A stretch of 64,000 nt of DNA from a virus. Where the stretch lies: positions 32,001-96,000 of IMG/VR virus record IMGVR_UViG_3300028028_000001. One strand, given 5' to 3'. The position numbers were made by a program, and so were the translations under genes. The notes under the pieces are model-generated. The model saw nothing but the letters and a program-made list of their open reading frames with translations. It searched no databases and was not told where the DNA came from. Below are positions 1 to 44,704 of this stretch, piece by piece (position 1 is the first letter of the stretch; every line of letters begins with the position of its first letter).

Positions 1-1314
1 CGCTGGGGGTCCGTGTTTGATGCGGTTCAGGGCTCCACTGGCGACTCCGAGAAAGCGGCTCGGGTGGCTTGGGGGGTGATGAGGAAGGCTATCATGGCGG
101 TCCGTGTTCCAGGCCATACCAGAAACGGACACTATGTGAAACCCTACCTGCGGATGATGGACCGCGCCGAGGCCCAGGCGGGACCAGGCGAGCGCATCGT
201 TTACCGGGCGTCCAACGAGAACGCTCCCGAGGTCGGTACGCACTACACCGAGCAGAAGGAGCACGCGGTCGCCTACACCGATAATTCTGGTTTCGGTGGC
301 TCAAAGGTCCATCGGTACGCGATCAAGCCGCAGAACGTGGCGGATACGGTCGGGGAGGAAAGGAACGGTCTTCGAGGACTGGCGCTTGCCTACCTGCGGG
401 CGCTCGACCCTGAAGACGCGGCAGAGGTGAAGGAGAAGACCAGAAGACGACTTGGCGTGGATGACGACGAGCGGATCACGTCGAAGCACGTCGCGCAGGA
501 TTGGGATGAGCGCGGGCTGACTCATGTCTTCCATGTTCTGGAGCACGATCCCCGGGTTGAACAGGCGATATCGCAGGTCCACGACTGGATCCGGTTTGAG
601 GATGATTTCCCCGAGGGGTCGATTACCTGGAAGCGTCTTGGTGGAGAAAAGCCGATGAACAAGGGTCTTGTACTGGAGGCCTCAGATACCAACCCCGCAG
701 TCAAGCGCTGGAAGCAGATCGATCGTGGCCACTCCGAGGAAGGGCACCGCTTCCTTTCGCGGGTCCATGCGGGCGGTGGGCAAATGGCCATCACCCAGGG
801 CCATGCGGACGAGCCGCACGTCAAGAGGCTCCTTCGAGAAAAGTTGATTCAACTCAAGAGGAACCCGGGTCACCACTGGAACGAGTACACGGCGCACCTC
901 ACGAAGGAGGGCACGAAGTACCATGAGGCCTATCGAGCCGCGCACGAGCAGACAGGAAAGCAGGAGAGCCTGTTCAAGGGCGTGGTCTGCATCTACATGA
1001 TCCGCAGTGACACGATGAGGAAAAGCATCCTTGAGAAGGCGGTTATCCCGGCGCTCGACATGGTTCCGGAGGACTTGGAGGAAGACGCTACCCCGAACAC
1101 CTGGACCGAGAACGGGTATACCGTCTCATGGCGACGGGGCAAGCGCGGGCATGGGTCGGTTACCTTCGAAGGGAACGGGCTGGCTATGCCGTTCGTGATG
1201 ACCGCTGCGGGCAAGAAGCACGCTCGGATCGTCGCAAGGGACGCGTCGGCGCTGTTGGCGAAGGGCAAGATCCCGCTTCTTGACGGGGTATTCAGGATGC
1301 GGAGAAAGACATGA
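1..1314 (+). CDS. Large-protein segment whose 5' end lies outside the window; ChaB-like motif plus one HxR hairpin motif
   Basis: Frame 1 is open from nt 1. 'GDSEKAARVAWGVMRKA' resembles the ChaB family. 'VRVPGHTRNGHYVKPYLR' matches a motif shared with the next four large proteins. The stop overlaps the next start (ATGA at 1311). Confidence 0.6.
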   Translation, partial: RWGSVFDAVQGSTGDSEKAARVAWGVMRKAIMAVRVPGHTRNGHYVKPYLRMMDRAEAQAGPGERIVYRASNENAPEVGTHYTEQKEHAVAYTDNSGFGGSKVHRYAIKPQNVADTVGEERNGLRGLALAYLRALDPEDAAEVKEKTRRRLGVDDDERITSKHVAQDWDERGLTHVFHVLEHDPRVEQAISQVHDWIRFEDDFPEGSITWKRLGGEKPMNKGLVLEASDTNPAVKRWKQIDRGHSEEGHRFLSRVHAGGGQMAITQGHADEPHVKRLLREKLIQLKRNPGHHWNEYTAHLTKEGTKYHEAYRAAHEQTGKQESLFKGVVCIYMIRSDTMRKSILEKAVIPALDMVPEDLEEDATPNTWTENGYTVSWRRGKRGHGSVTFEGNGLAMPFVMTAAGKKHARIVARDASALLAKGKIPLLDGVFRMRRKT

Positions 1315-3122
1315 ACCAGATCGCGAATCAGCCGGGCGTTCATCTTGACCATTTGAAGCATAGGTGGGTTCGAGATGAGGACGTGAAACCAGGCACGCGG
1401 TTTTATGTGCCTCACCATGAGGAATTGGACGTTCGGTCTGTCAAAGACGGGAAGGCAGAGGTGGGTTTGGTTGGCCACCCCATCACTGTGGACGTGCCTG
1501 AAAAGTCGGTGAAGTACTTTCATGCAGACATGCATGGGCAGTTGAACCACAAGCCCGATAGTGGCAACGAGCATGTTGACGCCGTAATTAGAGGGGAGGG
1601 TGAACACCTCGGCAAGGGCAACGACGGGATCGTTTATCGCCACGGGGAGAAAGTGGTCAAGGTCTCAACGACCGTCCCTTACCAGCCCTTCAACCGTGGG
1701 CAGCACAGGACTCCAGAGGAAGCCCTACGGCATCTTCAAAAGGAGCACGAGGCCCATACGGCACTCCAGGGGATTCCTGGCGTGCCCGAAGTGGATGGGC
1801 AAGAGCATGAGGGGCGATACTGGATGGTTAAGCCGCATCTTTCGCCTACTGGCGTGGTCGATGAAAAAGAAGCACATCAGGTGCGCGATTCCGTCCGGGC
1901 CATGCACGCGAAGGGATGGGTTCTGGGCGATACCGTGCAGGTTGGCCGAGACAAGTCGGGCGGCATCCAGTTCATGGACCTCGGGTCTGCTCACAAGTCG
2001 GATAGCGACTACCAAAGAGAGCACGACGAAGAAAGGTTGGCCTCGTTCTTCCATCTTCATCGGTTGAAGTACACGGATCCCCCTGCTGAAGTACAGAAAA
2101 AGGAGCGGGTAGCACGCACTCTCCTGGACATGGCCATCAAACACCAGGATCCGGAAAAGGTCAGGGCGCATCGTATTGAGTGGAAACGACTGGCGAGCGA
2201 ACACAGGATGAACCTCGTCAGAAAAGACGACTTCGACGGGATGATGGCGTTTGCGGACATTACCGATGCGATGGAGAAACGGCTTGAAAAGGCCATCTTC
2301 CTCAACGGCCAAAAGCGCAACCCCAAGGACTTCGACGAAGCCGCCCTATCTCAAGGCATCCGCGTGGAGATGGAGCACACCGACGATCCGAAGATCGCGA
2401 TAGAGATCGCGATGGATCACCTTGCCGAGCGTCCGGACTACTACGATCGGCTGGAAGAGATGGAAGCGAAGCCGATTCAAAAAGCCATCCTCTCCGGGAT
2501 CCGCTTTATGTACCTACTACGCAAGTCTCAGCTCAACCTCTTCGACTGGCACGGCGAACCCGTCCAGCACGAGCACCGCGAGCCGATCCCCACCAGGCCA
2601 CGCATGGGACCGGGCCCCCTGTTCGCCGAAGAGCGAGCGTCGGCGCCCGTGCATGCCCCGCTGCCCCCTATGCCTCCTCCGACCTCGCACACCTTCACCT
2701 CCAATATTCACGTCAAGAGCCACCTTCGGCGCCTGCCGTCGGGTGAAGTGGTGGAGGTAGCCGCGCACGAGAGAACAGCCGATCGGGTAACCCACGACGA
2801 TCCGAAGCCCCGGCAGACGAAGATCACAGAGTACGCCGACAAGCCGGCGCTCTTGAAGCCGCCTTCCATGGCACCGCAGCCCCGAGAGATGCCGAAGCCC
2901 TTCACGGAAGAGCAGTTAAAAGCGATTGGAGAGGCACGGGTGCGCCAAGAGGCGGCCGGCGGAACTCCGGGACAAGGAAGGCCCTGGGTACGATGGCCCA
3001 GCCAACCAGCGCCTCTCTGCTGCGAAAGCGGGGAGACTTGGGCCCGCGCACCGGGCAGCGGCAAAGAGCGCCCCGTGGACCTCGCAGGGCGTCCTGCTCC
3101 GATGGCAGCAACTGGCGATTGA
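1311..3122 (+). CDS. Multidomain protein: protein-kinase-like domain, DUF5661-like segment and the shared QLNLF/HxR module
   Basis: G-loop 'GKGNDGIVY', 'KVVKV', 'FMDLGSA' (DFG-like). 'RVEMEHTDDPKIAIEIAMDHLAERPDYYDRLEEME' is DUF5661-like. 'LRKSQLNLFDW...IHVKSHLRRLPSGEVVEVAAHER'. GC3 drops after about 2925, so the true 3' end is uncertain. Confidence 0.7.
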   Translation: MNQIANQPGVHLDHLKHRWVRDEDVKPGTRFYVPHHEELDVRSVKDGKAEVGLVGHPITVDVPEKSVKYFHADMHGQLNHKPDSGNEHVDAVIRGEGEHLGKGNDGIVYRHGEKVVKVSTTVPYQPFNRGQHRTPEEALRHLQKEHEAHTALQGIPGVPEVDGQEHEGRYWMVKPHLSPTGVVDEKEAHQVRDSVRAMHAKGWVLGDTVQVGRDKSGGIQFMDLGSAHKSDSDYQREHDEERLASFFHLHRLKYTDPPAEVQKKERVARTLLDMAIKHQDPEKVRAHRIEWKRLASEHRMNLVRKDDFDGMMAFADITDAMEKRLEKAIFLNGQKRNPKDFDEAALSQGIRVEMEHTDDPKIAIEIAMDHLAERPDYYDRLEEMEAKPIQKAILSGIRFMYLLRKSQLNLFDWHGEPVQHEHREPIPTRPRMGPGPLFAEERASAPVHAPLPPMPPPTSHTFTSNIHVKSHLRRLPSGEVVEVAAHERTADRVTHDDPKPRQTKITEYADKPALLKPPSMAPQPREMPKPFTEEQLKAIGEARVRQEAAGGTPGQGRPWVRWPSQPAPLCCESGETWARAPGSGKERPVDLAGRPAPMAATGD

Positions 3123-3819
3123 CCCTCGCCTGTTGGATGATGAGTTCGCCGACGACTTCCCCGGATACAAGAGCCCGAAGCTCCAGGCGGTCATCCAGGC
3201 CACGAAGGACCACCTGACGAATCACCCCGAAACCGGCGCCGTGCTTTTCTGTGAGTACAACGGCGGGATTGAGGCGATGAAGTCGAGCCTGATCGAGGAA
3301 GGCTACCGCCCCGAGGACATCGGGGTCTATACGGGCAAGGTGTCAAGCCAGCGGAAACGGCGCGACCTTCAGAACGACCTGAACAGCGGCAAGATCAAGA
3401 TCCTCCTTGGCAACACGGCGGCACTTGAGACGGGCGCGAACCTCCAGAAACGCGCTAACTTTGTCGCTCATCTCAACACGCCATGGGCCCCGGATCGGCT
3501 TGTCCAGTCAACCGGGCGAGTCCATCGGCAAGGGCAGGAACGGAAGGTTACCGTATTTCGCCCGACCGGATCCGAGGTAGAAGAACTCATCGAGCGCGTT
3601 GTCTCGCGCAAGCTCCTTCAATCCTCACAGGCGACCGGCGTAACGATGGCCGCTGACTCTCATGTAGCTGTCTCCATGCGCCGAAAGGGCCGCGAAAAGC
3701 TCGACTCCTCCACGATCGCGAAACTGCTGGGAATCGACCCGTCGCTGTTGTCGCAGAAGGGCGATGAAGCAGAACGCGAGGCCGCAGAGATCAAGGAAAT
3801 GAAGAAGAGGAAGAAATGA
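2926..3819 (+). CDS. SNF2/SF2 helicase C-terminal lobe only (motifs IV-VI); probably continues the upstream ORF by a frame change
   Basis: 'LLRWQQLAIDPRLL', 'KILLGNTAALETGANLQ', 'WAPDRLVQSTGRVHRQGQ'. No ATG start (TTG at 2926) and a 197-nt overlap with 1311..3122. High GC3 in this frame from about 2926. Confidence 0.65.
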   Translation: MERHGCAKRRPAELRDKEGPGYDGPANQRLSAAKAGRLGPAHRAAAKSAPWTSQGVLLRWQQLAIDPRLLDDEFADDFPGYKSPKLQAVIQATKDHLTNHPETGAVLFCEYNGGIEAMKSSLIEEGYRPEDIGVYTGKVSSQRKRRDLQNDLNSGKIKILLGNTAALETGANLQKRANFVAHLNTPWAPDRLVQSTGRVHRQGQERKVTVFRPTGSEVEELIERVVSRKLLQSSQATGVTMAADSHVAVSMRRKGREKLDSSTIAKLLGIDPSLLSQKGDEAEREAAEIKEMKKRKK

Positions 3820-5537
3820 ACGACTCCGAAGCCACGAATCTCCTGCGCGCCTTGGCCCCCGTCGGTGGGTCTCCTGGTGGGTTCGACCCCAAGAAGCGCC
3901 GCGTGCTCGTCATGCGGCTTCATCGGTATCTGGTGGAGGATGGCGGCTACATCCCAGCGTGGCTCAAGAACGAGGCGGCCGAGATGCGGAAGGGCGTGAT
4001 CCTTTACGTCGAGTTGCACAAGGCCGCTCAACTTGGGCTCTTCGGTGGTCAGGGTCGGGAGTTTCGCCCGGAGGTGCCGAAGCCGCATGGTGGTGGTAAG
4101 CCTCGTGGGCCGCAGCAGACCGGGATGACCTCGGGCGGGCTCTTCGGCACGGTCTGGGTCAAGGACCATGATCGGGTGGTGAATGGGCACGTCGAGCACG
4201 TTGACGGTCATGAGAGGAAGGTGGTGGGGAATGTCCACGCGCCCACGTTGACAGGAAAGGAGGAAGGTGGTAGGGTCGAGAGTGAACCTTCTCCGAAAGA
4301 GGAAAGCATGACCCGGCACCCTGACGCTCCGGAAGGATTCGAACCGGTTGACATGTCCATTCATGGAGCCCATAAGGCACCATCGAACGAAAAGGGGCAA
4401 CAGGGCTCTTTCAACTACTGGTATCCGACGCTGGAATCGGCTCGGGCAGGCCAGAAGCACCATGAAGAGCAGCAACGAGTAAAGGGGGATATGAAGCGGG
4501 CGCGGGAACATGAGAAGATCGCTCGCGGATCGGCAAAGTTCATTGAGGCTGAAACTCAACGAAGAGCAAAACTCGCGGCGGCAGAGATTCGGCGCACCGC
4601 TGTTCCTTTTGTTCACCCGAGTATCTATGAATATCGGGACTACATCAGAGAGCAGGGTGGTTTCGTGGAAGATGGTGGGTGGAAGGTGCCAGCCGCAGCT
4701 CACGCCGCCATTACGGAGCACATCGAGGAGCGGAATCGGAAATTGGCCATCAAGCGCCAAACGAAGCCATCAGTAACCCCACCGGTTCCGGCCGCACTGA
4801 AATACATACCCATACAGCACTCGAACACCTACGACTATCGGGAAGACATCAAGAAAGCCGGTGGTCGGTGGGACAATAACCAGCGGGTCTGGATGGTCCC
4901 GGAAAACAGGCATGCCGAACTAATCGCCAAGATGACGCCTGCGCCTGCGCCCCCTCCCGCAGCTCCTTTGCCGACGATCGCACCAGGAGAAAAGGAATAC
5001 ACCAGATTTGAGAATGGATCGCGTCGTATGAAGCCCGCTCATCCGTTGGCTGTCGGAGACGTGGTGTTTCGAGGGGATGGCGCAAACCGAACTTACCAGA
5101 CGGTCACGAAAGTAAGGCCTTCGCTCTTCCGTTCCGAAAACGATCAGGAGGACTTTGGAGAAACCGGAAGAGGTGCAGGTTGGTATCATCCGTATACCGT
5201 TCGACCTGCTACTGAGGAGGAATCGGCCAACCTCCGCGGCAAGCACGCAGAAGCAGACGCAAAGGTCAAGGCTGCGACTGCCGCAAAAATGGCGCTACAG
5301 TCAGCCATCCAGACGGCGGAATATCCGAAGAAGGCTGAACCATCAGGAGAGAGCATCAAGATTGGTCAAAATGAAACAATTCAGGTTGAGCCAGACCTTC
5401 AACACGCGTGGCACATCAAGTATAACGGTCGTGATGGCGACAACTGGGCCTACAACAACCTGGGCGGCCACTCGATCGCGCATCGGTTCCCAATGACTCC
5501 TGAACTATCAGGACACATCGAAGCGCTGAAAGTCTAA
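3816..5537 (+). CDS. Large hypothetical protein with the shared QLGLF/HxR module and two DUF5710-like repeats
   Basis: ATGA overlap at 3816. 'LHKAAQLGLFGG...VWVKDHDRVVNGHVEHVDGHER'. Repeats 'YEYRDYIREQGGFVEDGGWKVP' and 'YDYREDIKKAGGRWDNNQRVWMVP'. Confidence 0.75.
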   Translation: MNDSEATNLLRALAPVGGSPGGFDPKKRRVLVMRLHRYLVEDGGYIPAWLKNEAAEMRKGVILYVELHKAAQLGLFGGQGREFRPEVPKPHGGGKPRGPQQTGMTSGGLFGTVWVKDHDRVVNGHVEHVDGHERKVVGNVHAPTLTGKEEGGRVESEPSPKEESMTRHPDAPEGFEPVDMSIHGAHKAPSNEKGQQGSFNYWYPTLESARAGQKHHEEQQRVKGDMKRAREHEKIARGSAKFIEAETQRRAKLAAAEIRRTAVPFVHPSIYEYRDYIREQGGFVEDGGWKVPAAAHAAITEHIEERNRKLAIKRQTKPSVTPPVPAALKYIPIQHSNTYDYREDIKKAGGRWDNNQRVWMVPENRHAELIAKMTPAPAPPPAAPLPTIAPGEKEYTRFENGSRRMKPAHPLAVGDVVFRGDGANRTYQTVTKVRPSLFRSENDQEDFGETGRGAGWYHPYTVRPATEEESANLRGKHAEADAKVKAATAAKMALQSAIQTAEYPKKAEPSGESIKIGQNETIQVEPDLQHAWHIKYNGRDGDNWAYNNLGGHSIAHRFPMTPELSGHIEALKV

Positions 5538-5539
5538 TC

Positions 5540-5818
5540 GTGCTGCTTCTTTTCGTTCTCCTCCTCTCCTGCGCCCCAGAACCGCCAGAAGTCTGCAATA
5601 TGGTCTCCGTGCCCTGGGAGCGCTCGACGCTCAAGGCGATCGAGGTTTACCTCGACTACCTGCCCTGTGAGGCCACGATCGGCTGCGAGTCGCTTAACGG
5701 GACCGTGACGATTTACGACCTGGAGCCCGTTTGCGGAGTCGCCTGCCGGGTATACGGATCCTGCCGCCCGGACGAAACGCCGCTGGAACTTCGATACTCC
5801 GCGTGCGACTGCTCATAG
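5540..5818 (+). CDS. Small Cys-rich putative lipoprotein
   Basis: GTG start 3 nt after the previous stop. N-terminus 'MLLLFVLLLSC' has a lipobox-like LLSC. 8 further Cys. Confidence 0.5.
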   Translation: MLLLFVLLLSCAPEPPEVCNMVSVPWERSTLKAIEVYLDYLPCEATIGCESLNGTVTIYDLEPVCGVACRVYGSCRPDETPLELRYSACDCS

Positions 5819-6625
5819 CAGCGTAGTTTGCTCCCGCTCCTCATCCTGGCCCATTGGCAGACCTATCTGAACGCCAGCGGCCTCGATGCTCTCCAACCTG
5901 CGCGCCGCGATGTCGAGATAAGCCGGCTCCGTCTCGATCCCGATGTACTGGCGCCCAGAGAGTAATGCAGCCTCTCCGATGGCCCCAGAACCTGCGAAAG
6001 GGTCAAGGACCGTGCCGCCATGGGTCACGACGGAAACGAGCCACGCGCAGACCCTTGGGGGCTTTTCGGTGACGTGCTCGCGGTCCCTTGAAGACGCCTC
6101 GGTGACGTAACCGGGCAGGCAGCCGATCCCTGGTCTGTCGGTCGGCATCGGTCCAAGGGTTCCGACGGCGATGAATTCGCCCGGGTTCCAGAACCAGCCC
6201 ATCCGAGGCCTTGACGATCCGGGAGGCTTCAACCACGGGTGGATCCCGCGAAGGATGAACCCGCCCACTTGGAGCGCATCACAGACCGCGCCAACCTGCC
6301 GCCAGTCGGAAAAGACGCATGCCGGACTGCCGGGGAGCATGACCCGAGTCGCACGGGCCGCAATCTCCCCAAGCCAGATCGTGAAGGATCGCTGGTCTCG
6401 GTTGTCGCCTGCGAAGTTCGGAAGGTATTCGGCCTGCGCGGAATCGGAGCTGAGATACTTCTTGCGGGTGTCTAGCGTTCGATCACCACGGAAGGCACCC
6501 CCCGAAGAGTACGGGGGATCCGTGATCAGGGCGTCAACGCGGACGCGTTCGCGTTCGAGATCCGCGAGTACGAACAGGGAGTCGCCGTTGTAGAGTTTCC
6601 AGGTCTTTCCTTGGGCGTGTAGCAT
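5813..6625 (-). CDS. DNA methyltransferase, beta-class N6-adenine/N4-cytosine type
   Basis: Catalytic 'ITDPPYSSGG' precedes the SAM-binding 'VLDPFAGSGAIGEAA'. Opposite strand to all neighbouring genes. Confidence 0.9.
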   Translation of the reverse strand: MLHAQGKTWKLYNGDSLFVLADLERERVRVDALITDPPYSSGGAFRGDRTLDTRKKYLSSDSAQAEYLPNFAGDNRDQRSFTIWLGEIAARATRVMLPGSPACVFSDWRQVGAVCDALQVGGFILRGIHPWLKPPGSSRPRMGWFWNPGEFIAVGTLGPMPTDRPGIGCLPGYVTEASSRDREHVTEKPPRVCAWLVSVVTHGGTVLDPFAGSGAIGEAALLSGRQYIGIETEPAYLDIAARRLESIEAAGVQIGLPMGQDEEREQTTLL

Positions 6626-6667
6626 GGTGGAAGTGTAACACGTTGCATGGAGAGGTCAAGGTGGCAC

Positions 6668-6702
6668 GGTCTTTGCTACACCTTTCAGTGAAAGGAAAGA
6701 CC
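6668..6702. promoter_or_regulatory. Nested hairpin in the divergent intergenic region; possible operator or RNA structure
   Basis: GGTCTTT...AAAGACC encloses CCTTTC-agt-GAAAGG. Lies between the divergently transcribed MTase and + strand genes. No promoter consensus could be assigned. Confidence 0.25.
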
Positions 6703-6790
6703 ATGGAAACCCTCATCGCGGCGGGATCGGCTCCGGCCATCCTCATGTCGAGTTCTTCGTTCCCGTCTACCGAATCCACGCGAGCAAGCC

Positions 6791-7006
6791 ATGACCTGCC
6801 CCCGCTGCCACCAGCAATTCACCCCGACAGCAGAGGAGTCCAAGTGCCCCGACTGCGAGCGGGAGATCCTTCGTCGCAGGTACGAGATCGCCAGGATCCG
6901 CCGACATGGCGAGACCTGGCTTCTCGTCTCCCCGCGCCATGTTCTCGCGGGTGGGTTCGCCTCGCGCGAGCAGGCCGAGAGGTTCCGTTCCGCCAGGGTG
7001 GGGTAG
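6791..7006 (+). CDS. Small zinc-ribbon protein
   Basis: 'CPRC...CPDC' pair. ATG start. The stop lies 8 nt before the next ATG. Confidence 0.55.
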   Translation: MTCPRCHQQFTPTAEESKCPDCEREILRRRYEIARIRRHGETWLLVSPRHVLAGGFASREQAERFRSARVG

Positions 7007-7013
7007 ATCCGGA

Positions 7014-7511
7014 ATGGACCTCTTCAACCATCAAGGCGCCGTCTTCTCGGAGGATCGCGTCTACCGCTATCGGCTCTGGCGGCATCCTCCTGATACCCGG
7101 TTCGCCGCGTTCATCGGGCTCAACCCGAGCACCGCTGACGAAACCCAGAACGACCCGACCGTGACCCGTTGTATCGGGTTCGCTCGGTCGTGGGGTCTTG
7201 CGGGCATGGAGATGTTGAACCTTTACGGGTTTCGCTCGACGGATCCCGATCCGATGTTCAAGCACTCTGCTCCTATAGGACCGGGCAACGACGAGGCGAT
7301 CCTGGCGGTCGCTCGTGAGGCGTCGATCGTGATCGGCTGCTGGGGCGCGTTTCCTCAAGCCCGCATCCGTGCTATCGAGGTTCATAGGATGCTTTCCTCT
7401 GCCGGTATCGTGCTTCATGCTCTGCAATTGACTTCGCAGGGTTGGCCTCGGCATCCTCTCTACCTCTGCCGAGACCGGGAGCCCTTTCCATGGAGGATCC
7501 CTGCGGGGTAA
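7014..7511 (+). CDS. DUF1643 family protein
   Basis: 'VYRYRLWR...FIGLNPSTADETQNDPTVTRCIGFA...GWPRHPLYL' is typical of DUF1643. Start moved to ATG 7014 from the ORF-track 6906. Confidence 0.8.
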   Translation: MDLFNHQGAVFSEDRVYRYRLWRHPPDTRFAAFIGLNPSTADETQNDPTVTRCIGFARSWGLAGMEMLNLYGFRSTDPDPMFKHSAPIGPGNDEAILAVAREASIVIGCWGAFPQARIRAIEVHRMLSSAGIVLHALQLTSQGWPRHPLYLCRDREPFPWRIPAG

Positions 7512-7537
7512 AGAGGTAACACCATTCGAGGGTTCCC

Positions 7538-9871
7538 ATGCACCTCTATCGCCCCGTTCGATCCGCTGACGGTTCTCTTTCGCTACGTGCCTCGGAACTG
7601 GTCTTCCGTCGCCCCGATGTGGCCCCCCGCGAGCTGCGCAAGGCCCTTCGTCTTCCGATCGGCATCGGCTGGCGTGACATCGACCAGGACGTGGACGGTG
7701 GCAAGGAGAAGAGGATCGTGGAGTGGGGAACGGTCTCCCGCTACTGGCCCTCACTCGAAGCCGCCATGGCCGCAGAACGGCGCTACCTGATCCTCGGGTC
7801 GCAGGATGACGGCTACGGGATTCCCCAGGTCGAGCGGCCCGGGTCGGTCCAGGCCTGGGAAGCACGGGAGCGCGCCCGTTCGGCTCATGAGATGGTGATC
7901 TACTACTCGCCCGACGGGTGGACGGCTCTTGCTGGTGACGAGCACGGTGGGCAGGTCAAGGTGCTCGACGACTGCCGCGCGTACCGCTGGCCCTCGCTCA
8001 TGGACGCGCTCTCTGCTGAGACGGCGTGGAGAGAGAAGGCGGACGCCGCGACCCTCAAACAGGTCCAGGCCGAAGCGCGCGGTGGAGAACCGAAGCCTTC
8101 GTTCTACGGTTACGGCGCGTTCATGGACGCGGCGCGGAAGTGTGCGGAGTTCATGGCGCTTGCGGATCCGGGTGTCGGGGCGCCTCTCGTTCGGTTCACG
8201 GTGGACCTTCGCAAGGCCGCTCAAATGGGGTTGTTCGGAGGGGAGACACGGATCCCGGAGCGGTCGCATCAAATGGGCCTCTTCGGTGGGACCGCGCACG
8301 TCAAGGCGCATACCCGGGTGGTCCATGGGCATGTGATCGAGGTGAAGGCCCATGATCGGGAGGTCGAGCATGGGGCGAACCATCCTCCCGAGGTGATGGG
8401 GCACTCGGCGCCGGGACATCGGGTGGATGTGGATGCGAAGGTGGCATGGCCAGAAGTCAAAGAAGGCAACCTGTACCGCATCCATTTCGACACCCGCGAC
8501 GAAGGCCAGCCGCACGGCGACTATATCGCCAAACGAGCCTCGACGAATCATCACCAGTTCGAGAACCTTCTCAACGGCGCCCCCATGATGTTGAACCGGG
8601 ATGCGGAAGGGCAGGGGAAGCACAGTCTGAGCGGCAAGGAAGGTGTCAGGATCCGAAGCGTTACAGGGTTTGAGGATGCTCTGGATGAGGCGAAAGCCAA
8701 GCATGAGATCATCCGAAAGGACGCGGAACGGGCGGCTTTGGCACCGAAGGTTGAGGAGAAGCCCTCCATTTCCGTCGATCCGGCCCAAATCGTCAAACCA
8801 GCGGACATTCAACCACCGGGCCCCATTCGTGACTACACCGACATGAAGCCATCGGTCGGTATGAAGGTTCACGGGCACTACATGCGGTCACCCTTCACCG
8901 GCACGGTCCATAACATCGAATCCGACTCAAGCGGATACCCTGGCACCCAGAACGATCGCAGGTTGTGGGTGAAACTTGATAGCCCCCTGGTGGTCCCGGA
9001 AGGTGATTCGTCATACCCCGCCGGTCACGTTCGGCGCGAGGCAGGGGAAAGCATCATTTTCCACGGGGAAAAACAGGCGTCAGGACATACACGGGTTCAT
9101 CATGACACCCATCAAACCCTGGATTCGGTAGATAATCCGCTTCCTGGGTTGGTGCCCTTCGTAACAGACTACGATTCACGAAAGAAAACCCATACCCTGT
9201 CCGTGAACGGGAAGATGTCGAGCCATCCGACGCATGAAGCCGCGTTTGCTGCGGGGATGGAGGAGGTCAAGCCCACAACGCAACTTATCACCGAAGATGA
9301 GCTGAGAGAGCAGACCATCAAGCCCCCACCCAAGCCCACCCTATCCGTCAAACCTGCGGAAATCGTTCAGGTTATACCGGGTATGGAGCACGAACATCCG
9401 GACTTTCCAGGCCACCGGTTGACCCGTGTGCAAACCCGGGAGAGGGACATCAGTTCCCGTGGTCGGGGACATGATTTATACACAATGATTGCCGGCCCAG
9501 AAGATGACACAATGCACTGGAGCGACAAGCATGTTGGCCATGAAGTAATTTCGGACGATTATCCAAGGTCAAGGTCCATACGATCAAGCGATAGACATGG
9601 TGAAACCTATGCGCATATGCCGCTCAAGCCCGGTAGTGTGATTATGCGTCTCAAAAAGAATACCGACGGGACAACCCAGAAGTCTGCGTTAGTTGTTCCG
9701 GAAAGTGGAGGAGACACATACCCAAGACACAAAGATCAACCACTGGACGCCGATAGTTTGCCGTCTGCAACGGTAACCTCACGCAAAGCGGCTACTGGAT
9801 GGGAAACTGTAGTAGATATCCCCGAAGGGATATCGGGTGTCAAGGCTGGTAAGCGAATTTACCGAGGATAG
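7538..9871 (+). CDS. Large hypothetical protein with a duplicated QMGLF motif plus the HxR module
   Basis: 'LRKAAQMGLFGG...SHQMGLFGGTAHVKAHTRVVHGHVIEVKAHDR'. The last ~500 nt have visibly lower GC. Confidence 0.75.
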   Translation: MHLYRPVRSADGSLSLRASELVFRRPDVAPRELRKALRLPIGIGWRDIDQDVDGGKEKRIVEWGTVSRYWPSLEAAMAAERRYLILGSQDDGYGIPQVERPGSVQAWEARERARSAHEMVIYYSPDGWTALAGDEHGGQVKVLDDCRAYRWPSLMDALSAETAWREKADAATLKQVQAEARGGEPKPSFYGYGAFMDAARKCAEFMALADPGVGAPLVRFTVDLRKAAQMGLFGGETRIPERSHQMGLFGGTAHVKAHTRVVHGHVIEVKAHDREVEHGANHPPEVMGHSAPGHRVDVDAKVAWPEVKEGNLYRIHFDTRDEGQPHGDYIAKRASTNHHQFENLLNGAPMMLNRDAEGQGKHSLSGKEGVRIRSVTGFEDALDEAKAKHEIIRKDAERAALAPKVEEKPSISVDPAQIVKPADIQPPGPIRDYTDMKPSVGMKVHGHYMRSPFTGTVHNIESDSSGYPGTQNDRRLWVKLDSPLVVPEGDSSYPAGHVRREAGESIIFHGEKQASGHTRVHHDTHQTLDSVDNPLPGLVPFVTDYDSRKKTHTLSVNGKMSSHPTHEAAFAAGMEEVKPTTQLITEDELREQTIKPPPKPTLSVKPAEIVQVIPGMEHEHPDFPGHRLTRVQTRERDISSRGRGHDLYTMIAGPEDDTMHWSDKHVGHEVISDDYPRSRSIRSSDRHGETYAHMPLKPGSVIMRLKKNTDGTTQKSALVVPESGGDTYPRHKDQPLDADSLPSATVTSRKAATGWETVVDIPEGISGVKAGKRIYRG

Positions 9872-9874
9872 CCC

Positions 9875-12800
9875 ATGTTCACCCCCTGCAAGTGCTCCAA
9901 AGGCTGCAAGGCCCACGCCATCATCACAGCGCTCGACATGGACGGGACCACCTACCCTGTGCGAGTCCCCTATGAGCACCGCTACTCCTCGATCGGCTGG
10001 GGCGACCGTCCGCGCGTGCGGTTCGGTGATTCCGTAGCCGTCGAAGTGGCGCGCGGAGAGAAGGGCGTCCAGGCTCTTGACGAACTCGGCAACCTTCACC
10101 GGTTGAACCATGGCGCGTTCTCCACCTGGATTCCGGAAAGGAAGGGCAAGGCTCTCAAAAAGGCGGAAGTCAAAGCCGGTCAACGATGGATCACGGTCCA
10201 CCCCGGCGGCGAAGGCTCAACGGGCGTCCCCATCCTGATTCAGGAGGAGAAGGACGGAACCCACCGAGTCGTGGCAGGCGCGGGCGGGAAACTGACGCAC
10301 CTCCGGCTTGAGAACGTCAAGAGCGCGGACGAATACGCCAAGTCCAAAGCCGACAAGAAGGCCGCAAAGAAAGAGAAGGACAAGACCGCTCCGAAGGAAG
10401 TCAAGGAGACCAAGAAGGAAGCCCACGAGAAGAAGCGCGAGGCCGAGCGCCAGTTCGTCAAAAAGGTGAGCACGAAACTCGGGGGAGTCTCCGAGGATCG
10501 CAAGCGTGACGAATCCGAATCTCCCGCCGTCGCACGTCGGCTTGACGCGCAGCATCATCGAAAGCAGGTCAACGAGGCCAAGAAGCGCGCCCACGGAGCC
10601 ATGCAGGCGGTCGTTGCAGAGCGGACCGGGCAGGAGAGGGCAAAGGCGCTCACCTCCGAGGATACTCCCGAGGTCTCCGCTCACGTTCAGGAAACGATTC
10701 GCGCAGAACTCGACGACGAGGAAGCCGCTCAGAAGGCGCGCAAGGAAGCCCGCGCGCCAAAGATGATGGCCTCCCGGGCCGTGGACCCCGGAGCGCAAGA
10801 GAAAGCCGTCGTCCATGCCGTTGAAGCGGTCAAGCAGGCCCCTGAGCAGCTCGACAAGACACTTGAAGCGCTCGGCGGGCGTACTGACTCGGGCGAGGTT
10901 CTCCGGCTCTCTGTCGTGCCTGCCGTGGAGGCGAAACGCCGGTCCCTGCAAGCGCTCCAGGACGCCCAGATCATCCATGAAGCCCTATCGAACGGGCCCC
11001 CGAAAGACGAGAAGCAGCAGGCGATCGTGGAGCAGGCCCTGGGCGGCGCGAAACTCGGAACCGAGGAGGCCAAGGAAGCACTCCAGACCGCCATGGTCTC
11101 GAAGGTCAACGAAGCCGAGCGGCACGAAGTCCAGTCCAGGAAGCTCGACCAGATCGCACGGGACAAGGGCGAAGACGTGGCCGACCGTGCTCTCCGGGCG
11201 ACCGACGCGGCAAGGGCCATCGCTCGCGAAACACAGGAAGCGCGGCGCCTGGGACTCGACAATCCCGAGAAGACGCCCCTTACTGTGCCTGAAACCGATG
11301 AACTCATGGACGTGGTGAAGGACCTCCAGGACCTGAAAGCGAAGACCCGAGCCCTGAAGAACGTCGTCAAGGACGCGGAAAAGGGCAACTTCGATCGGTC
11401 GCGCCGTGCGTTCAAGATGGACGTTCAAGCGGCCCCCAAAGACGTGGAGATGTCGATCGAGGAAGAGGTTCAGCGCTCACTCACGGAGCAGCTCCTCGGC
11501 GCGGTCAAGACCGATCGCCCGGAGTACATCCAGGGCGTCACCGCTGGGCACTATGACGCCCTCGCGGATGTCGGCTTGCAGATTGGCGGCCAGCGCTACC
11601 TGGACCGCCCCACGGTGGACGCTCTCGGCGCGAAGAATGCCGCGATCCTACTCCGGTATGGGCTTGACCAGGACGGGCACGATATGGACGCCGTTCGCCA
11701 GGCCGTGGAAGAGTCGCACGTTGACGCGGTGAAAACCGAAGCCGCCAAAGCCATCGAGAAAGCGCGATCCTACGTCCCTGGGTTGGTCCACGAAGTCGAT
11801 ACAACCGAAGACGCCGAAGCAGCAATGGCGCACTTGGACGCCCACGAATCCGAGATCGTCTCAGCGCAGAAGGCCCTTTCCTCGGCGATCGGGAGGCTCG
11901 AAGGTACGGCTACCCTTGGCCAGGCGCTGCGCGACAAGATGCCCGATAGCCTTTCCGTTCGGGGCACCTCTCTTGAATCGTCTCAGCAGTGGGTTCATTC
12001 GCTCGGGCTTCACCCTGCCGATTACGAGGTGAACGCTGCACGGAACGAGATTACGATCCCCCGCCGATCGTGGGACAAACTGCTATCCCGAGACTCGCGC
12101 GAGGACATCGACAACCGGCGCGTGGTCAACGAGATCAAGGCAGGTCAGCACGACATCAAGGGTTGGCTTCCTCCCGGCATTGCCTATCGAGAGGCCTCCA
12201 CGTTCACCGCGCCCGTTCCCAGCGCTCCTCGCATGTGGGAACCGCTTTCGTTCGATGGCGACCTCGACGAGGCCATCAAGACACACGTCGGCGCCCGGTT
12301 GGCATCCGGTGAGCATATCGGGGAGATTGCGTCTGACATCTCCTCGGAAGGTGTTGCTTCGCAGGCCCCGAGCGCGAAGGAATACCGCGCGGCACTCGAG
12401 CGGCACTTCCCTCTCTACAAGGAAGGTGGAAAGGAACGGCTCACCGAAGCCCTGGCGGCTCTTGGACCTCGGCCGGAGAACGAGAACGAGGCGATCGAGT
12501 GGGACCGAAAAGCCATTAAGGCGGAGCAAGCGGAAAAGGTAGGCCTGACGCACTTCGCCGACAAGTGGGAGTCCTGGGCCCAGGACTACATGGAAAAGAA
12601 GCACGGTGGCGAGGGAGCCTATCACTCGCAGAACCTGCATCCCGAGGACGTGGCGACCCGTGAGGCCATTTTCCGGACGCTGGCGGATCACCCGGAGGGC
12701 AAGATCGCCTTCAAGCCGTCGGGTCAACTGACACCGCAGGAAGAGGGGGTGATTCGGGACCGGTACTATCAGAGGATGGGGATCGACCCGAAGGTGAAGG

Positions 12801-15577
12801 TTGACGAGGCAAGGTTCCAAAGGGAGATGGCCCAGGCCAGTATGCCGGAAGGGCAGTGGGAGACCATGGTCAAGGAACACGAAGGAGAAGGCATAACTCC
12901 AGGGCAGGCCAAGGCCCGAGCCATGTCTCACCTTGGAGAGAAGGTCAAGAATGAGGCGTATTACCAAGAACTGACGAAACCATGGGACAAGACGGCTGGA
13001 ACTGCATCTATAGACGAACCAAAGGATGTAAAACAACGTCGCCAATACCTGACGCGCGAACTCGCCGCACTCGGGAAAGAGCCCGACCGCCAAGACAAAG
13101 AGGCCAACCAGAAATGGCAAGAAGCGCGTAATGCTGTTTTTGAAAAGGCCGACACCGATTCTGGCAAGGAAGAACTTGATGAGACCAGTCCCGAATACCG
13201 GGCTTGGCAAAAACGACGTGATGCTGTTCTTGCCCGTCATCCGCGAGCGGGTATGCAAAGCGCAATCGATAGTCTCGACAAAGCCGATCCGGAGTACGCA
13301 AGCAAAGTCGAAGCCATCAAACAGGACGCAGCGACCGCCCCCACCGCCTGGGGCAACTACGTTGAAGCGCACGGTTCGCGGCAACTGGCGATCGAGGCCC
13401 TGCAAGATGAGATGAGGGGCGAATTCGTCAAGACGTACCAGGAGCACCACGGAAAGGTCACCGGGAACCCGCTACGGGTGGGCGTTCAGGACGTAACCAA
13501 CAAGGCGCGCCATATCCGGGCAACAGGATCCCCCGAGGAAATCGCGCAAGCCAGGGCAGAGGAAAGGTCCAGGCTATCCAGTCTCCAGAAGAGGCAGGGC
13601 GGCGGATTTACCGAGATGGGCGGTGCAGGGTCGGCGAAAGCCCTGTTCACAAAAGCACTTGAACAAGACGAAATCGACAAGTCAAGTCAACTCGCTATGT
13701 TCGGATCGGCTACCTCCTCGGTGGCGGACCTCCCCGAAAAGAAGATCGAGCCGAAGACCGGCCAGCGGTGGAGTCTCGGAACCCGCGCGGAATCGCAACT
13801 TGAGAGCGTCATCAATGGCGGCCTGGGCCAGCAGTTTCAACCAGGAAGCCCGATCCGGCTTTTCGGTGGGCTCAACATGGATGGCGATCGAATCCACCAG
13901 CAGCGGGTTCTTCGCCAACTCGATCGGGTCAAAAGGATGGCGGCGCTTCTCGGCACGGGCGCGGGGAAGTCGCTCACCTCGATCGCAGGGTTCACCCAGG
14001 CGCACGCGAAGGGTGAGGCATCCCACGGGCTCTATCTGGTCCCTGCCGCAGTCCAAGACCAGTTCGGCGGCGAGATGTTGCGCTACACGCAGCCCGGGAA
14101 ATACAACTGGGCAACGGGTGGCGGAAAGAGCCACGCGGAACGGGTACGGATGCTCAAGGATCCGTCTATTCATATGCGGGTTATGACACACCAGTCCTTC
14201 CGGGATACTGCCCTAAAACTCATGGCAGACCACCATGGTCGGACTACCGAGAAGATGACAGAGGACTTCGGAAAGGCAGACCCAAAGACCCGCGCCCGGT
14301 GGATGCGTGAGGCCTTCGATGCCCACGGGATCCCCCGCCACTTCGTCTATTATGACGAGGCGCACACCGCGACCTCCGAGAACGAGAAGAGCGCCTCTCT
14401 GACTCATGACGTTGCGACGGCGGTAACGCATCCGTCGAACGCTACCCATCTGCTTCTCGGGACCGCCACCCCCACGAAGAACAACACCGGAGAGATGCAC
14501 TCATGGGCCTCGCTACTCGATCCGGACAAGTACGCCGATCGGTGGAAGTTCATGCAGAACTTTGGGAGGGAAACCGCCTGGAACCCGAACGCGATCCGTC
14601 AAGAACTTGGGCACCGGGTTTACACCGCCAGAATCGACCCCGAAGGAGTATCCCGAACAGACACCGACAACCCGACCGTGGAGGAAAAGGAAGTCCAGAC
14701 TGGTGAGAATATGTGGGGTCCAACCTACGAAAAGCAGAAGGTGAAGTCTGCCGGCAAGCCGATCGAACTTCACCCTACCCAGAAGGCCCGGGTAGATGAG
14801 ATCACGGCGGCTTATGAGCAGGCATCCACCTCGTTCAAGAAGGGCCATGTGGACGTGGAGAGCATCCGGAAAATCAACCCGGCACCGTTCGAGGGTAAGA
14901 CCGATGAGCAGGCCCAAAGCATCGCGCGGAACATGATGAAGGGCCTTGGCTTCACCCGTGACGCGGCGCTGGAGCGGGCGATCAACCGCTCGCCTGTGGG
15001 CCAGAACGCGAAACTGGACGCCCTGGCCTCTGTCGTCCAGCATGACCTCGCGCAGAACTGGACCGATCGGAAAGGCAACGCGCGCAAGGGGAAGGCCTCG
15101 ATCATCTTTTCGGACTCGGCGCAGGATGGAAAACTCATCAACCAGCACCTTCGCTCTCTTGGCGTCCGCTCGGCTTTCTATCACGGTGGGCTTCCGAACG
15201 AGCAGAAAGAAGCCATCCGCACCGGGTTCCAACCCGAGCAAGGCGAGCCGAAGCACGACGTTATCGTCGCCACGTCGGCGGCCGAGGCGGGTCTGAACCT
15301 CCAACGGGCAAGCGTGCTGCACAATTACGACGTGCCCCAGACTGAGAAGAGCCACGCGCAGAGAGCCGGGCGAGCGTACCGGCAGGGGCAACTTGGCGAC
15401 GTGGAGATTCACAACTGGCACACGAACACGGCGTTCGAGCGTCGGGCGCTTCAACTGCTCAAGGAGAAGCGGTATCTCGCTTCCGTGTTTCAGACTCCGA
15501 TCGGCCATATGGACGACACAGGAACGGGCCTGCGTTATACTCGGATCATCTCACGCAAACATGAGGCTGCGGCATGA
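9875..15577 (+). CDS. 1900-aa SNF2-family helicase with long N-terminal extension (polyvalent/DarB-style architecture)
   Basis: 'GTGAGKSLTS' (Walker A), 'YYDEAHTA' (motif II), 'LLGTATPTKNN', 'ATSAAEAGLNLQ', 'QRAGRAYRQGQ'. N-terminal 'RWITVHPGGEGSTGVPILI' and a K/E/A-rich coiled region. Confidence 0.9.
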   Translation: MFTPCKCSKGCKAHAIITALDMDGTTYPVRVPYEHRYSSIGWGDRPRVRFGDSVAVEVARGEKGVQALDELGNLHRLNHGAFSTWIPERKGKALKKAEVKAGQRWITVHPGGEGSTGVPILIQEEKDGTHRVVAGAGGKLTHLRLENVKSADEYAKSKADKKAAKKEKDKTAPKEVKETKKEAHEKKREAERQFVKKVSTKLGGVSEDRKRDESESPAVARRLDAQHHRKQVNEAKKRAHGAMQAVVAERTGQERAKALTSEDTPEVSAHVQETIRAELDDEEAAQKARKEARAPKMMASRAVDPGAQEKAVVHAVEAVKQAPEQLDKTLEALGGRTDSGEVLRLSVVPAVEAKRRSLQALQDAQIIHEALSNGPPKDEKQQAIVEQALGGAKLGTEEAKEALQTAMVSKVNEAERHEVQSRKLDQIARDKGEDVADRALRATDAARAIARETQEARRLGLDNPEKTPLTVPETDELMDVVKDLQDLKAKTRALKNVVKDAEKGNFDRSRRAFKMDVQAAPKDVEMSIEEEVQRSLTEQLLGAVKTDRPEYIQGVTAGHYDALADVGLQIGGQRYLDRPTVDALGAKNAAILLRYGLDQDGHDMDAVRQAVEESHVDAVKTEAAKAIEKARSYVPGLVHEVDTTEDAEAAMAHLDAHESEIVSAQKALSSAIGRLEGTATLGQALRDKMPDSLSVRGTSLESSQQWVHSLGLHPADYEVNAARNEITIPRRSWDKLLSRDSREDIDNRRVVNEIKAGQHDIKGWLPPGIAYREASTFTAPVPSAPRMWEPLSFDGDLDEAIKTHVGARLASGEHIGEIASDISSEGVASQAPSAKEYRAALERHFPLYKEGGKERLTEALAALGPRPENENEAIEWDRKAIKAEQAEKVGLTHFADKWESWAQDYMEKKHGGEGAYHSQNLHPEDVATREAIFRTLADHPEGKIAFKPSGQLTPQEEGVIRDRYYQRMGIDPKVKVDEARFQREMAQASMPEGQWETMVKEHEGEGITPGQAKARAMSHLGEKVKNEAYYQELTKPWDKTAGTASIDEPKDVKQRRQYLTRELAALGKEPDRQDKEANQKWQEARNAVFEKADTDSGKEELDETSPEYRAWQKRRDAVLARHPRAGMQSAIDSLDKADPEYASKVEAIKQDAATAPTAWGNYVEAHGSRQLAIEALQDEMRGEFVKTYQEHHGKVTGNPLRVGVQDVTNKARHIRATGSPEEIAQARAEERSRLSSLQKRQGGGFTEMGGAGSAKALFTKALEQDEIDKSSQLAMFGSATSSVADLPEKKIEPKTGQRWSLGTRAESQLESVINGGLGQQFQPGSPIRLFGGLNMDGDRIHQQRVLRQLDRVKRMAALLGTGAGKSLTSIAGFTQAHAKGEASHGLYLVPAAVQDQFGGEMLRYTQPGKYNWATGGGKSHAERVRMLKDPSIHMRVMTHQSFRDTALKLMADHHGRTTEKMTEDFGKADPKTRARWMREAFDAHGIPRHFVYYDEAHTATSENEKSASLTHDVATAVTHPSNATHLLLGTATPTKNNTGEMHSWASLLDPDKYADRWKFMQNFGRETAWNPNAIRQELGHRVYTARIDPEGVSRTDTDNPTVEEKEVQTGENMWGPTYEKQKVKSAGKPIELHPTQKARVDEITAAYEQASTSFKKGHVDVESIRKINPAPFEGKTDEQAQSIARNMMKGLGFTRDAALERAINRSPVGQNAKLDALASVVQHDLAQNWTDRKGNARKGKASIIFSDSAQDGKLINQHLRSLGVRSAFYHGGLPNEQKEAIRTGFQPEQGEPKHDVIVATSAAEAGLNLQRASVLHNYDVPQTEKSHAQRAGRAYRQGQLGDVEIHNWHTNTAFERRALQLLKEKRYLASVFQTPIGHMDDTGTGLRYTRIISRKHEAAA

Positions 15578-16246: not shown

Positions 16247-16284
16247 CCCTACCCGGATCCCCTCCCGGGTAGGGCCTTCTTTTG
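16247..16284 (+). terminator. Rho-independent terminator
   Basis: Perfect 10-bp stem CCCTACCCGG/CCGGGTAGGG, 8-nt loop, then CCTTCTTTTGTT. Confidence 0.75.
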
Positions 16285-16293
16285 TTGGTACTC

Positions 16294-17746: not shown

Positions 17747-17777
17747 TCCCATCCCAACCCCACAAGGACAAAACACC

Positions 17778-44546: not shown

Positions 44547-44704
44547 GGTTTCTCCTGTTTTGGTGGTTCAGTCTTGTGGGTAGTAACATGTTGAGCAGAA
44601 AGGGCAAGGCCTCGCGCGATTCGGGCGCGGCGGTAGAAGAATCGGAAGAGGTCAGCGAAAAGCCAGCCGAGAAGGAAACCGGCGATGAGAAGGGCGTAGT
44701 TCAT
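44543..44704 (-). CDS. Small single-pass membrane protein (53 aa)
   Basis: 'MNYALLIAGFLLGWLFADLF'. ATGA overlap with the radical-SAM stop. The RBS lies inside the 23-bp repeat. Confidence 0.5.
   Translation of the reverse strand: MNYALLIAGFLLGWLFADLFRFFYRRARIARGLALSAQHVTTHKTEPPKQEKP

Follow-up and report, generated by a model that had tools for sequence, protein, structure and literature searches.

Polyvalent proteins of phages and conjugative elements, among them the DarB-type methylase-SNF2 proteins, were described by Iyer, Burroughs, Anand, de Souza and Aravind (2017; PMC5512222), and passages of that paper propose that such proteins are processed by embedded metallopeptidases. Polyvalent effectors delivered by the virion represent a major, and almost wholly computational, part of phage-host conflict. 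For one of them, P1 DarB, the first 30 residues are enough to direct a reporter to the capsid (PMC9024508). The MuF/SPP1 gp7-type head-incorporation domain is the accepted adaptor by which effector domains are brought into heads. Another described element that bears on the present locus is the bacterial beta-clamp-binding motif, whose consensus is QL(S/D)LF (PMC9690074). Here we analysed a 64-kb window (the whole stretch of DNA under study) of IMG/VR record IMGVR_UViG_3300028028_000001, a ~96.5-kb contig that is also found in Logan SRR8449812 and ENA ERZ27247322 and that carries the NCBI label of a Thermoleophilia metagenome-assembled genome (MAG), and we examined a short cassette that recurs in the large proteins encoded by open reading frames (ORFs) A to H of this phage.

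We found that the units share a three-part, non-catalytic leader/junction cassette, composed of a hydrophobic strand-like run (E1), a short motif ending in [LM]-F (E2, the LF motif) and a basic hairpin (E3), and that this cassette opens effector units in relatives of the phage. The cassette is almost certainly a real and recurrent module, and it is very probable that A-H are separately encoded units of a phage polyvalent effector array. What is new here is an uncatalogued leader/junction cassette of such arrays that is present in a cultured phage, the Bordetella phage PHB04, and is therefore experimentally accessible. A recognizable cassette also provides a handle for finding cargo in genomes even without enzyme homologs, as for the G protein, which is matchless among 5.8 billion proteins.

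Evidence for a shared cassette

The ORFs of the array and the elements within them are as follows.

..1314, + strand: ORF A, 456 aa, true start 57 nt before the window; effector unit, hairpin-like segment close to the N-terminus
76-153, + strand: segment of A, 'VMRKAIMA' (hydrophobic strand and K-A) followed by 'VRVPGHTRNGHYVKPYLR'; a weak hairpin copy at aa 45-70 of the full protein
1311-3122, + strand: ORF B, 603 aa, with DUF5661 at aa 346-387 and the cassette after DUF5661
2499-2774, + strand: B cassette, IRFMYLLRKS at 2499-2528, QLNLF at 2529-2543, a 54-aa Pro-rich linker, and the hairpin IHVKSHLRRLPSGEVVEVAAHER at 2706-2774
2926-3819 (gene callers' start 3133), + strand: ORF C, a lone SNF2-type helicase C-lobe, the longer frame overlapping the tail of B
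3816-5537, + strand: ORF D, 573 aa; cassette at aa 61-134, DUF5710 match below threshold at aa 339-372
3996-4217, + strand: D cassette, VILYVELHKAA at 3996-4028, QLGLFGG at 4029-4049, a Gly/Pro-rich linker, GGLFG at 4134-4148, and the hairpin VWVKDHDRVVNGHVEHVDGHER at 4152-4217
7538-9871, + strand: ORF G, 777 aa, with the cassette at aa 218-274
8189-8359, + strand: G cassette, VRFTVDLRKAA at 8189-8221, QMGLFGG at 8222-8242, a short linker, QMGLFGG at 8270-8290, and the hairpin AHVKAHTRVVHGHVIEVKAHDR at 8294-8359
9875-15577, + strand: ORF H, 1,900 aa, a long N-terminal region and an SNF2 helicase core; ortholog of a 2,036-aa protein of the related phage locus L012
10151-10210, + strand: 'ALKKAEVKAGQRWITVHPGG' in H, a K-A junction ahead of a conserved unnamed RWITVHPxG domain
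13688-13705, + strand: QLAMFG in H, a stand-alone E2 just upstream of the SNF2 core

The coordinates given for these ORFs in the original prediction were all correct, as were the ATGA overlaps of A with B and of C with D and the 3-nt gap between G and H. The prediction had also stated that five of the proteins share one module, and this holds for B, D and G, is weak for A, and fails for the N-terminus of H. The LF motifs lay where they had been reported, QLNLF at 2529-2543 in B, QLGLF at 4029-4043 in D, and QMGLF at 8222-8236 and again at 8270-8284 in G. When all six frames of the 64 kb were scanned with a regular expression, Q[LMIV]x[LM]F occurred just five times, each time in frame, in B, D, G (twice) and H. 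Since the B, D, G and H ORFs make up only ~3.6% of the six-frame positions and hold five of the five motifs, the probability of this placement by chance is ~6e-8. Two LF sites had been absent from the prediction, QLAMF at 13688-13702 in H and GGLFG at 4134-4148 in D, the latter directly before the hairpin, as in G. The LF-site peptides of interest are YLLRKSQLNLFDWHG, HKAAQLGLFGGQG, RKAAQMGLFGGET and DKSSQLAMFGSAT, together with MIILLTKAQLALFDTP from PHB04.

A hidden Markov model (HMM) of the hairpin was built from 39 foreign instances, with no window copies included, and was scored on the six-frame ORF set of the window. This foreign-only HMM recovered the B hairpin (2706-2774; 26.2 bits, E 3e-7) and the G hairpin (8294-8359; 23.2 bits, E 2e-6); the scores of the D hairpin (4152-4217; 5.9 bits) and of the A segment (100-153; 5.5 bits) were not significant. 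The D and G copies were joined by BLASTP (aa 61-167 of D against aa 218-314 of G; E 3.5e-8 over 114 residues), and their reported identity at the DNA level (AAGGCCGCTCAA...) was confirmed. Inspected by eye, the A segment resembles the G-[HY]-x-R-x-G-x-Y-V-K-P-[HY]-x-R variant of PHB04 ATI15667 and Yersinia gp131; A is at most a plausible member. The degenerate copy that had been placed at the N-terminus of H (9956-10054) was rejected as a module, the HMM being silent there and the segment forming part of a conserved Cys-rich N-terminal domain that can be aligned with the L012 ortholog position by position. It had been set beforehand that related copies should show profile similarity beyond composition, and for B, D and G a resemblance by composition or chance is refuted.

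The cassette corresponds to no named family, as had been suggested, with no Pfam, NCBIfam or annotated PHROG match over its length. The isolated modules returned nothing from Pfam at E <= 10 and likewise none from NCBIfam, and Pfam was silent over the hairpins of the PHB04 and Yersinia proteins and of the hairpin-bearing proteins P0010, P0012 and P0013. Nothing significant was obtained when the hairpin profile was searched against PDB sequences (best E 0.14). In a word-indexed search of the 5.8 billion proteins, the isolated 73-aa G module gave one candidate and no match, and the sole match of the whole G protein was itself, annotated 'MAG: Thermoleophilia bacterium'; G had no relatives among phage sequences. 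Searching IMG/VR with the module alignment yielded 37 pattern matches, none of them confirmed. A degenerate DNA pattern for H-T-R-R-T-K-S-G-K was discarded, since its two matches in IMG/VR were chance ones (one after a stop, one an H-T-S-R variant). Literature searches on phage or virion clamp-binding motifs and on capsid-targeting sequences of packaged or ejected proteins returned no description of the cassette.

Anatomy of the cassette and the split array

The anatomy of the cassette was pooled from the window, from the loci L010, L011 and L012, from 39 IMG/VR loci recovered with the RWITVHPxG domain of H, and from two GenBank phages. E1 is a hydrophobic strand-like run ending in K-A/S (VRFTVDLRKA, VILYVELHKA, IRFMYLLRKS, MIILLTKA, MLRVMILAKA, RPILLLKAS). 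E2 is Q-[LMI]-[GASND]-[LM]-F, mostly followed by G, within a Pro/Gly/Lys/Glu-rich linker of ~0-54 residues; the residue after its Phe is not always Gly, since LFDW, LFAK, LFRQ and LFPP were also seen. E3 is a basic, amphipathic beta-hairpin of ~22 residues, x-V-K-x-[HY]-x-R-(turn with G)-x-V-x-V-x-x-[HY]-x-R, and each strand carries one H/Y-x-R half-site; in a hairpin of two strands, such a pattern would turn the K/H/R side chains to one face and the small or hydrophobic residues to the opposite one. The Q-h-small-h-F of E2 is invariant, and the H/Y and R of the hairpin near-invariant, even among proteins that cannot otherwise be aligned. The position of E2 varies, as it may stand before E3, after E3 (PHB04 ATI15667, L023), doubled (G) or alone (H). 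An AlphaFold2 model of the G copy, made from a 3-sequence alignment, gave predicted local distance difference test (pLDDT) values of ~70 for the E3 strands and below 50 for the E2 region.

The B, D and G copies were made into a profile, and 1.84 billion representative proteins were screened with it in HMMER. Apart from the three source proteins, the profile recovered the polyvalent proteins P0009 (E 5e-5) and P0011 (E 2e-4), as well as P0010, P0012 and P0013, which are made largely of repeated hairpins. P0009 (2,566 aa) combines InPase, DUF5661, ART-PolyVal, LPD1 (with an HEWGH motif) and HATPase domains and has the LF-plus-hairpin cassette between domains, while P0011 (1,531 aa) combines InPase, a C5 methylase and a region homologous to the N-terminal ~250 aa of B (B aa 18-264, 45% identity). 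The original prediction had asked whether the module always separates domains. In P0009, P0011, L012_918 and L012_2036 it is internal, and in fused proteins it lies between domains, but on separately encoded proteins it is N-terminal, beginning at residue 1 in six proteins of relatives: L011_427 (Mom-like domain), L011_576, L012_1516, and PHB04 ATI15645, ATI15667 and the HD hydrolase ATI15650. ATI15645, a 2,097-aa 'N-6 DNA methylase', opens with MIILLTKAQLALFDTPVHVGAHVRKDGTVVKPHIR.... Being N-terminal on separate genes and inter-domain in fusions, the cassette is therefore a unit leader. Within the window, A (aa 45-70) and D (aa 61-134) have it near the N-terminus, B (aa 397-488) and G (aa 218-274) in the interior. 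That gene breaks fall at the modules, as had been supposed, is not borne out, the module being internal in B, D and G.

Twenty further copies of E2 were found in relatives, and the cassette recurs up to three times per polypeptide (P0011, L010_1112). E3 is much more widespread than the bipartite form; it is present six times, with one E2, in the L010 polyvalent locus and four times in a 1,373-aa IMG/VR protein, and it forms stand-alone proteins of 45-50 aa beside a KTSC-domain gene in an unrelated phage. One of these, P0016 (45 aa; L006 8001-8138, also in L007-L009), consists only of the hairpin and a basic tail, and its neighbors are the KTSC-domain gene, a PTPS gene, a 553-aa gene that is probably a large terminase, and an SPP1-type portal gene. 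A G-Y-x-R-x-D-G-T-x-V-x-P-H-x-R hairpin was found at the C-terminus of a Microbacterium plasmid zeta-toxin protein (L057 5002-6081), and in P0010 and an Aneurinibacillus secreted protein (L058 5899-6618) the hairpin follows right after the signal peptide; the hairpin is therefore not phage-specific. E1, E2 and E3 were seen in combination only within the group of PHB04-like and L012-like phages, and in the phage collection only in PHB04. Among plasmids there was no bipartite module, just two weak hairpin-only matches.

In H, the elements occur apart. In seven H-type proteins, namely H and six orthologs, the Q-[LM]-[GSA]-[LM]-F pattern stands unvaried at the homologous position ahead of the helicase, between flanks that vary and are rich in gaps. 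The RWITVHPxG domain (window 10151-10260, H aa 93-130; 'GQRWITVHPGG...GVPILI...DGTHRVVAGAGGKL') had no Pfam match; it is conserved in SNF2 proteins of ~1,500-2,000 aa, at their N-terminal end or close to it, in 39 IMG/VR contigs (L015-L053) and in PHB04. A hydrophobic run with K-A/S usually stands directly before the domain, in many relatives as a leader at the start of the protein, and about 18 of 40 RWITVHPNG domains are opened by E1 alone. The H ortholog of L012 has an insertion of ~250 aa after the shared Cys-rich N-domain (L012_2036 aa 95-354; L012 18000-18750), which consists of the LF-plus-hairpin cassette and an extra domain ('HPPCGPWG...LEHPVGSRLF'); this insertion shows that cassette-plus-domain units are gained or lost as blocks.

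The description of the locus as a dismembered polyvalent protein upstream of head genes is well supported by L012, which is syntenic with the window phage (identity of 42% for the MuF-like, 49% for the protease-like and 40% for the capsid protein, and of 38-50% for H) and in which the fused P0009 fills the A-G slot, with the H ortholog (2,036 aa) beginning 3 nt after it. Polyvalent domains present in the window itself are DUF5661 in B (E 1.5e-11), SNF2 and Helicase_C in H, and Helicase_C in C (Pfam), and PHROG DarB-like and helicase families match C and H. Of the domain labels first assigned, Pfam upheld these three, placed DUF5710 below its cut-off (23.6 against 26.5 bits) and lent no support to 'ChaB-like' and 'kinase-like'; ORF A matched nothing in Pfam or NCBIfam. 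As in described polyvalent proteins, DUF5661 and an SNF2 ATPase are found in the window, InPase, ART-PolyVal, LPD1 and C5/N6 methylases in its cassette-bearing relatives, and the block adjoins portal-like, MuF-like and capsid genes, so that A-H are encoded among virion head genes. However, the window array is split into at least six genes, with a reverse-strand methylase gene and a DUF1643 gene inserted, and the passages of PMC5512222 on hairpin, linker and clamp describe no such junction cassette. Whereas a polyvalent protein should hold 2-15 effector domains per polypeptide, the window proteins (297-1,900 aa) have one to three recognizable domains each, and the locus is therefore filed as a split array rather than as a polyvalent protein.

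A possible docking leader and its alternatives

Taken as a whole, the cassette may be a docking device or leader for the units, a reading that we favor but hold tentatively, at somewhat less than even confidence. E3 together with E1 would be a generic basic clip that fastens a unit to a polyanion, namely the packaged DNA, or to part of the prohead, and such a clip would let the enzymes travel with the genome. A generic clip, whether for a polyanion or for the edge of a beta-sheet, would agree with the basic face of E3 and with the unrelated contexts in which E3 is found. In phages, E3 could be a packaging or DNA clip that keeps cargo with the DNA or in the prohead, which we advance with the same reserve as the docking proposal itself.

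E2 has the character of a short linear motif for a very conserved partner, because its pattern is invariant, its placement is variable, its linkers are Pro/Gly-rich and it matches the clamp consensus. All five window copies (QLNLF, QLGLF, QMGLF twice, QLAMF) match the QL(S/D)LF or the Qxx(L/M)F pattern. QLGLF, which we take to be the terminal motif of E. coli Pol II, and QLNLF, presumably a motif of UmuC, are identical to the D and B copies, respectively. E2 is carried by SNF2, C5/N6 methylase, Mom-like and ParB units and is absent from hairpin-led NUDIX, HD and InPase units, the sample being small. A candidate partner, a full-length sliding clamp, is encoded by the phage itself:

55724-56899 (probable start 56791), - strand: DnaN beta sliding clamp, with all three Pfam DNA_pol3_beta domains

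The best match of this protein to solved beta clamps had E 1e-36, and its C-terminal VVMPIRL aligns with VVMPMRL. No DNA polymerase was recognized among the window ORFs scanned. E2 would bind the beta clamp, and after injection the DNA-directed units (the SNF2 helicase here; methylases, Mom-like and ParB-like units in relatives) would be parked on sliding clamps, either the host's or those formed by phage DnaN. That E2 is a clamp-binding motif is, in our estimate, a little less probable than the clip role of E3. The broader proposal, that virion-delivered enzymes of PHB04-like phages and their metagenomic relatives dock on the clamp as a landing pad for anti-restriction, modification or takeover, with the hairpin as a portable cargo clip, is more doubtful again. 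Judged from motif and context, a clamp-binding role is nevertheless possible as a specific and cheaply testable alternative to reading the cassette as an address or a processing element. If E2 does bind the clamp, injected phage enzymes would join the list of clamp clients, compare DNMT1-PCNA in eukaryotes, which suggests how they might act in cis on DNA that is entering the cell or has just been replicated.

E2 agrees with known beta-clamp motifs in its pattern (Q, aliphatic, small/polar, L/M, F), in being carried by DNA-acting enzymes, in a setting that may be flexible or terminal, its linkers being Pro/Gly-rich, and in that the phage encodes a DnaN-type clamp. It differs from them in being found in head-cluster proteins rather than in the replication module, and in up to two copies per protein. 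Several further observations weigh against docking and clamp binding. The h-x-h-x-L-x-K-A upstream of E2 is conserved and Gly is frequent after its Phe, neither of which is known from clamp motifs; no clamp-type motif was seen in the replication-module ORFs of the window; and no DnaN was found in the stretches of related phages covered (the head-region loci and ~40 kb of PHB04), nor was PHB04 present among the 40 of 116 DnaN tblastn matches listed. The association of LF with DNA-acting domains comes from few proteins, several of them with unassigned domains (D, G, ATI15667), and the AlphaFold2 model of the G copy is weak as a whole (mean pLDDT 52.7). As for the clip, since the hairpin occurs in plasmid zeta-toxin and secreted proteins, its role need not concern capsids or DNA.

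Next to the docking leader, the explanation that survives best, although we consider it unlikely, is that of the original prediction, by which the cassette is a capsid-targeting leader that recruits the units to the prohead via scaffold, portal or inner capsid and that a protease may trim. All carriers are encoded inside the head-morphogenesis cluster, and in PHB04 and relatives the cassette is an N-terminal leader common to unrelated enzymes (HD hydrolase, NUDIX, methylase-helicase, Mom-like). The record of Yersinia phage fHe-Yen8-01 gives the annotation 'particle associated' to gp131, a NUDIX protein led by the hairpin, and to the ART polyvalent protein encoded next to it. There is precedent in the N-terminal 30 residues of P1 DarB (PMC9024508), to which the cassette was likened along with the T4 internal-protein capsid-targeting sequence; as there, a short leader is common to otherwise unrelated proteins that may be packaged in the head, and the DarB-like giant methylase-helicase ATI15645 has the cassette at its N-terminus. 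In contrast to these leaders, however, the cassette is often internal, as in B and G, and is repeated up to three times in one polypeptide, though one address would do. Nothing similar in sequence is present in the P1 Dar proteins, a plasmid zeta-toxin protein and secreted Firmicute proteins also have the hairpin, and none of the protease-like, scaffold-like, capsid, portal-like and MuF-like ORFs contains the LF motif. That the cassette is homologous to the P1 Dar packaging signals was rejected, as DarB, DarA, Hdf, DdrA, DdrB and Ulx lack the hairpin and the QGDMF of DdrB is unrelated. The MuF domain offers a parallel as an adaptor, and a MuF-like protein is encoded upstream of A, but the cassette is unrelated to it in sequence and far shorter; because the MuF-like protein here is a separate polypeptide, A-H would need another route into the head. 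Should the cassette be a capsid-targeting leader after all, it would offer a portable tag with which heads could be loaded with foreign proteins, as was done with the DarB N-terminus.

It is improbable that the cassette is a passive structured spacer, a self-folding hairpin and flexible linker that separates domains, has no specific partner, and was inherited by descent or duplication. The range of linker lengths (from ~0 to 54 aa), the very different protein contexts of the hairpin and the low AlphaFold2 confidence would agree with a spacer, but the invariance of Q-h-small-h-F and the near-invariance of the hairpin H/Y and R across unalignable proteins argue against it, as does the presence of the cassette at the extreme N-terminus of single-domain enzymes, where a spacer is unneeded.

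We regard as slightly less probable again that the cassette is a proteolytic processing site, the Q-h-x-h-F↓G or the h-h-L-x-K-A strand being cut by a zincin-type or prohead protease that splits polyvalent units. Its placement would suit such a site, since the cassette stands where domains meet in the fused proteins and where genes begin in the split ones. Processing of polyvalent proteins by embedded metallopeptidases is proposed in PMC5512222, and P0009 has an LPD1 domain with an HEWGH motif. However, cleavage at E2 would yield inconsistent products, with LF standing before or after the hairpin and in tandem in G; Gly after Phe is not universal, L010 has six hairpins against one LF, and the protease-like, scaffold-like, capsid, portal-like and MuF-like ORFs are without the motif. 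With its two hydrophobic residues at P1/P2 and a small residue after them, the motif would resemble the Prp/L27-type LNLQFF↓A site. Host Prp-type cleavage was rejected as the sole explanation, since the motif register differs and hosts such as Bordetella and Pseudomonas are not known to have the L27 extension. A double-glycine leader was likewise rejected, the hydrophobic spacing being a misfit and GG not universal.

Finally, chance or compositional resemblance among His/Arg-rich, high-GC ORFs, for which the 'copies' of A and the H N-terminus without statistical support might speak, can be dismissed, as it is refuted for B, D and G by the D-G BLASTP match, the foreign HMM (B and G), the five of five LF motifs in frame and the retrieval of polyvalent proteins from 1.84 billion sequences by the B/D/G profile.

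Surroundings of the array

The genes in the 10 kb 5' of the window are, in order, those of a GpA-type large terminase, a portal-like protein of 548 aa, a MuF-like protein of 377 aa, a 124-aa protein, an 819-aa protein and ORF A. The MuF-like protein (L003 4548-5681), three genes upstream of A, was called by eye from its C-terminal HPNC motif, Pfam being silent. The 819-aa protein (L003 6108-8567), between the MuF-like gene and ORF A, is Ala/Gly/Thr-rich and has no family match. On the 3' side, the array is followed directly by further head genes:

16282-19379, + strand: protease-like, scaffold-like and major-capsid ORFs, with orthologs in the same order in L012; Pfam silent

Because portal-like and MuF-like genes lie upstream and protease-, scaffold- and capsid-like ORFs downstream, A-H are placed inside a head-morphogenesis cluster. 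The capsid protein had no relatives among GenBank phages or in IMG/VR. In the scaffold-like ORF (17069-17746, + strand), an acidic stretch is duplicated in tandem (EDKE[E/D]ESDPDIH twice), and there are five L/M-x-K-A-[VI] motifs (LAKAV, MEKAI, LTKAV twice and a C-terminal LHKAV) that recall the 'L-x-K-A' of E1.

Within the array, the co-directional block is broken between D/E and G by a reverse-strand N6/N4 DNA methylase gene (5813-6625, - strand) and a DUF1643 gene (6906-7511, + strand). The longer frame of ORF C (2926-3132) encodes 'LLRWQQLAIDPRLL', which looks like an SNF2 inter-lobe motif, and overlaps, in another frame, the odd-looking C-terminal tail of B (~2900-3122), so that there could be a B-C frameshift, due to sequencing or programmed. 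In the minus-strand early region (44704-46505 and 52077-53969), a radical-SAM protein is encoded beside a DUF5131 protein, a C5 cytosine methylase and a ThyX-like ORF, the last of which was called by eye from its RHR...S-x-x-S-x-R-Y pattern.

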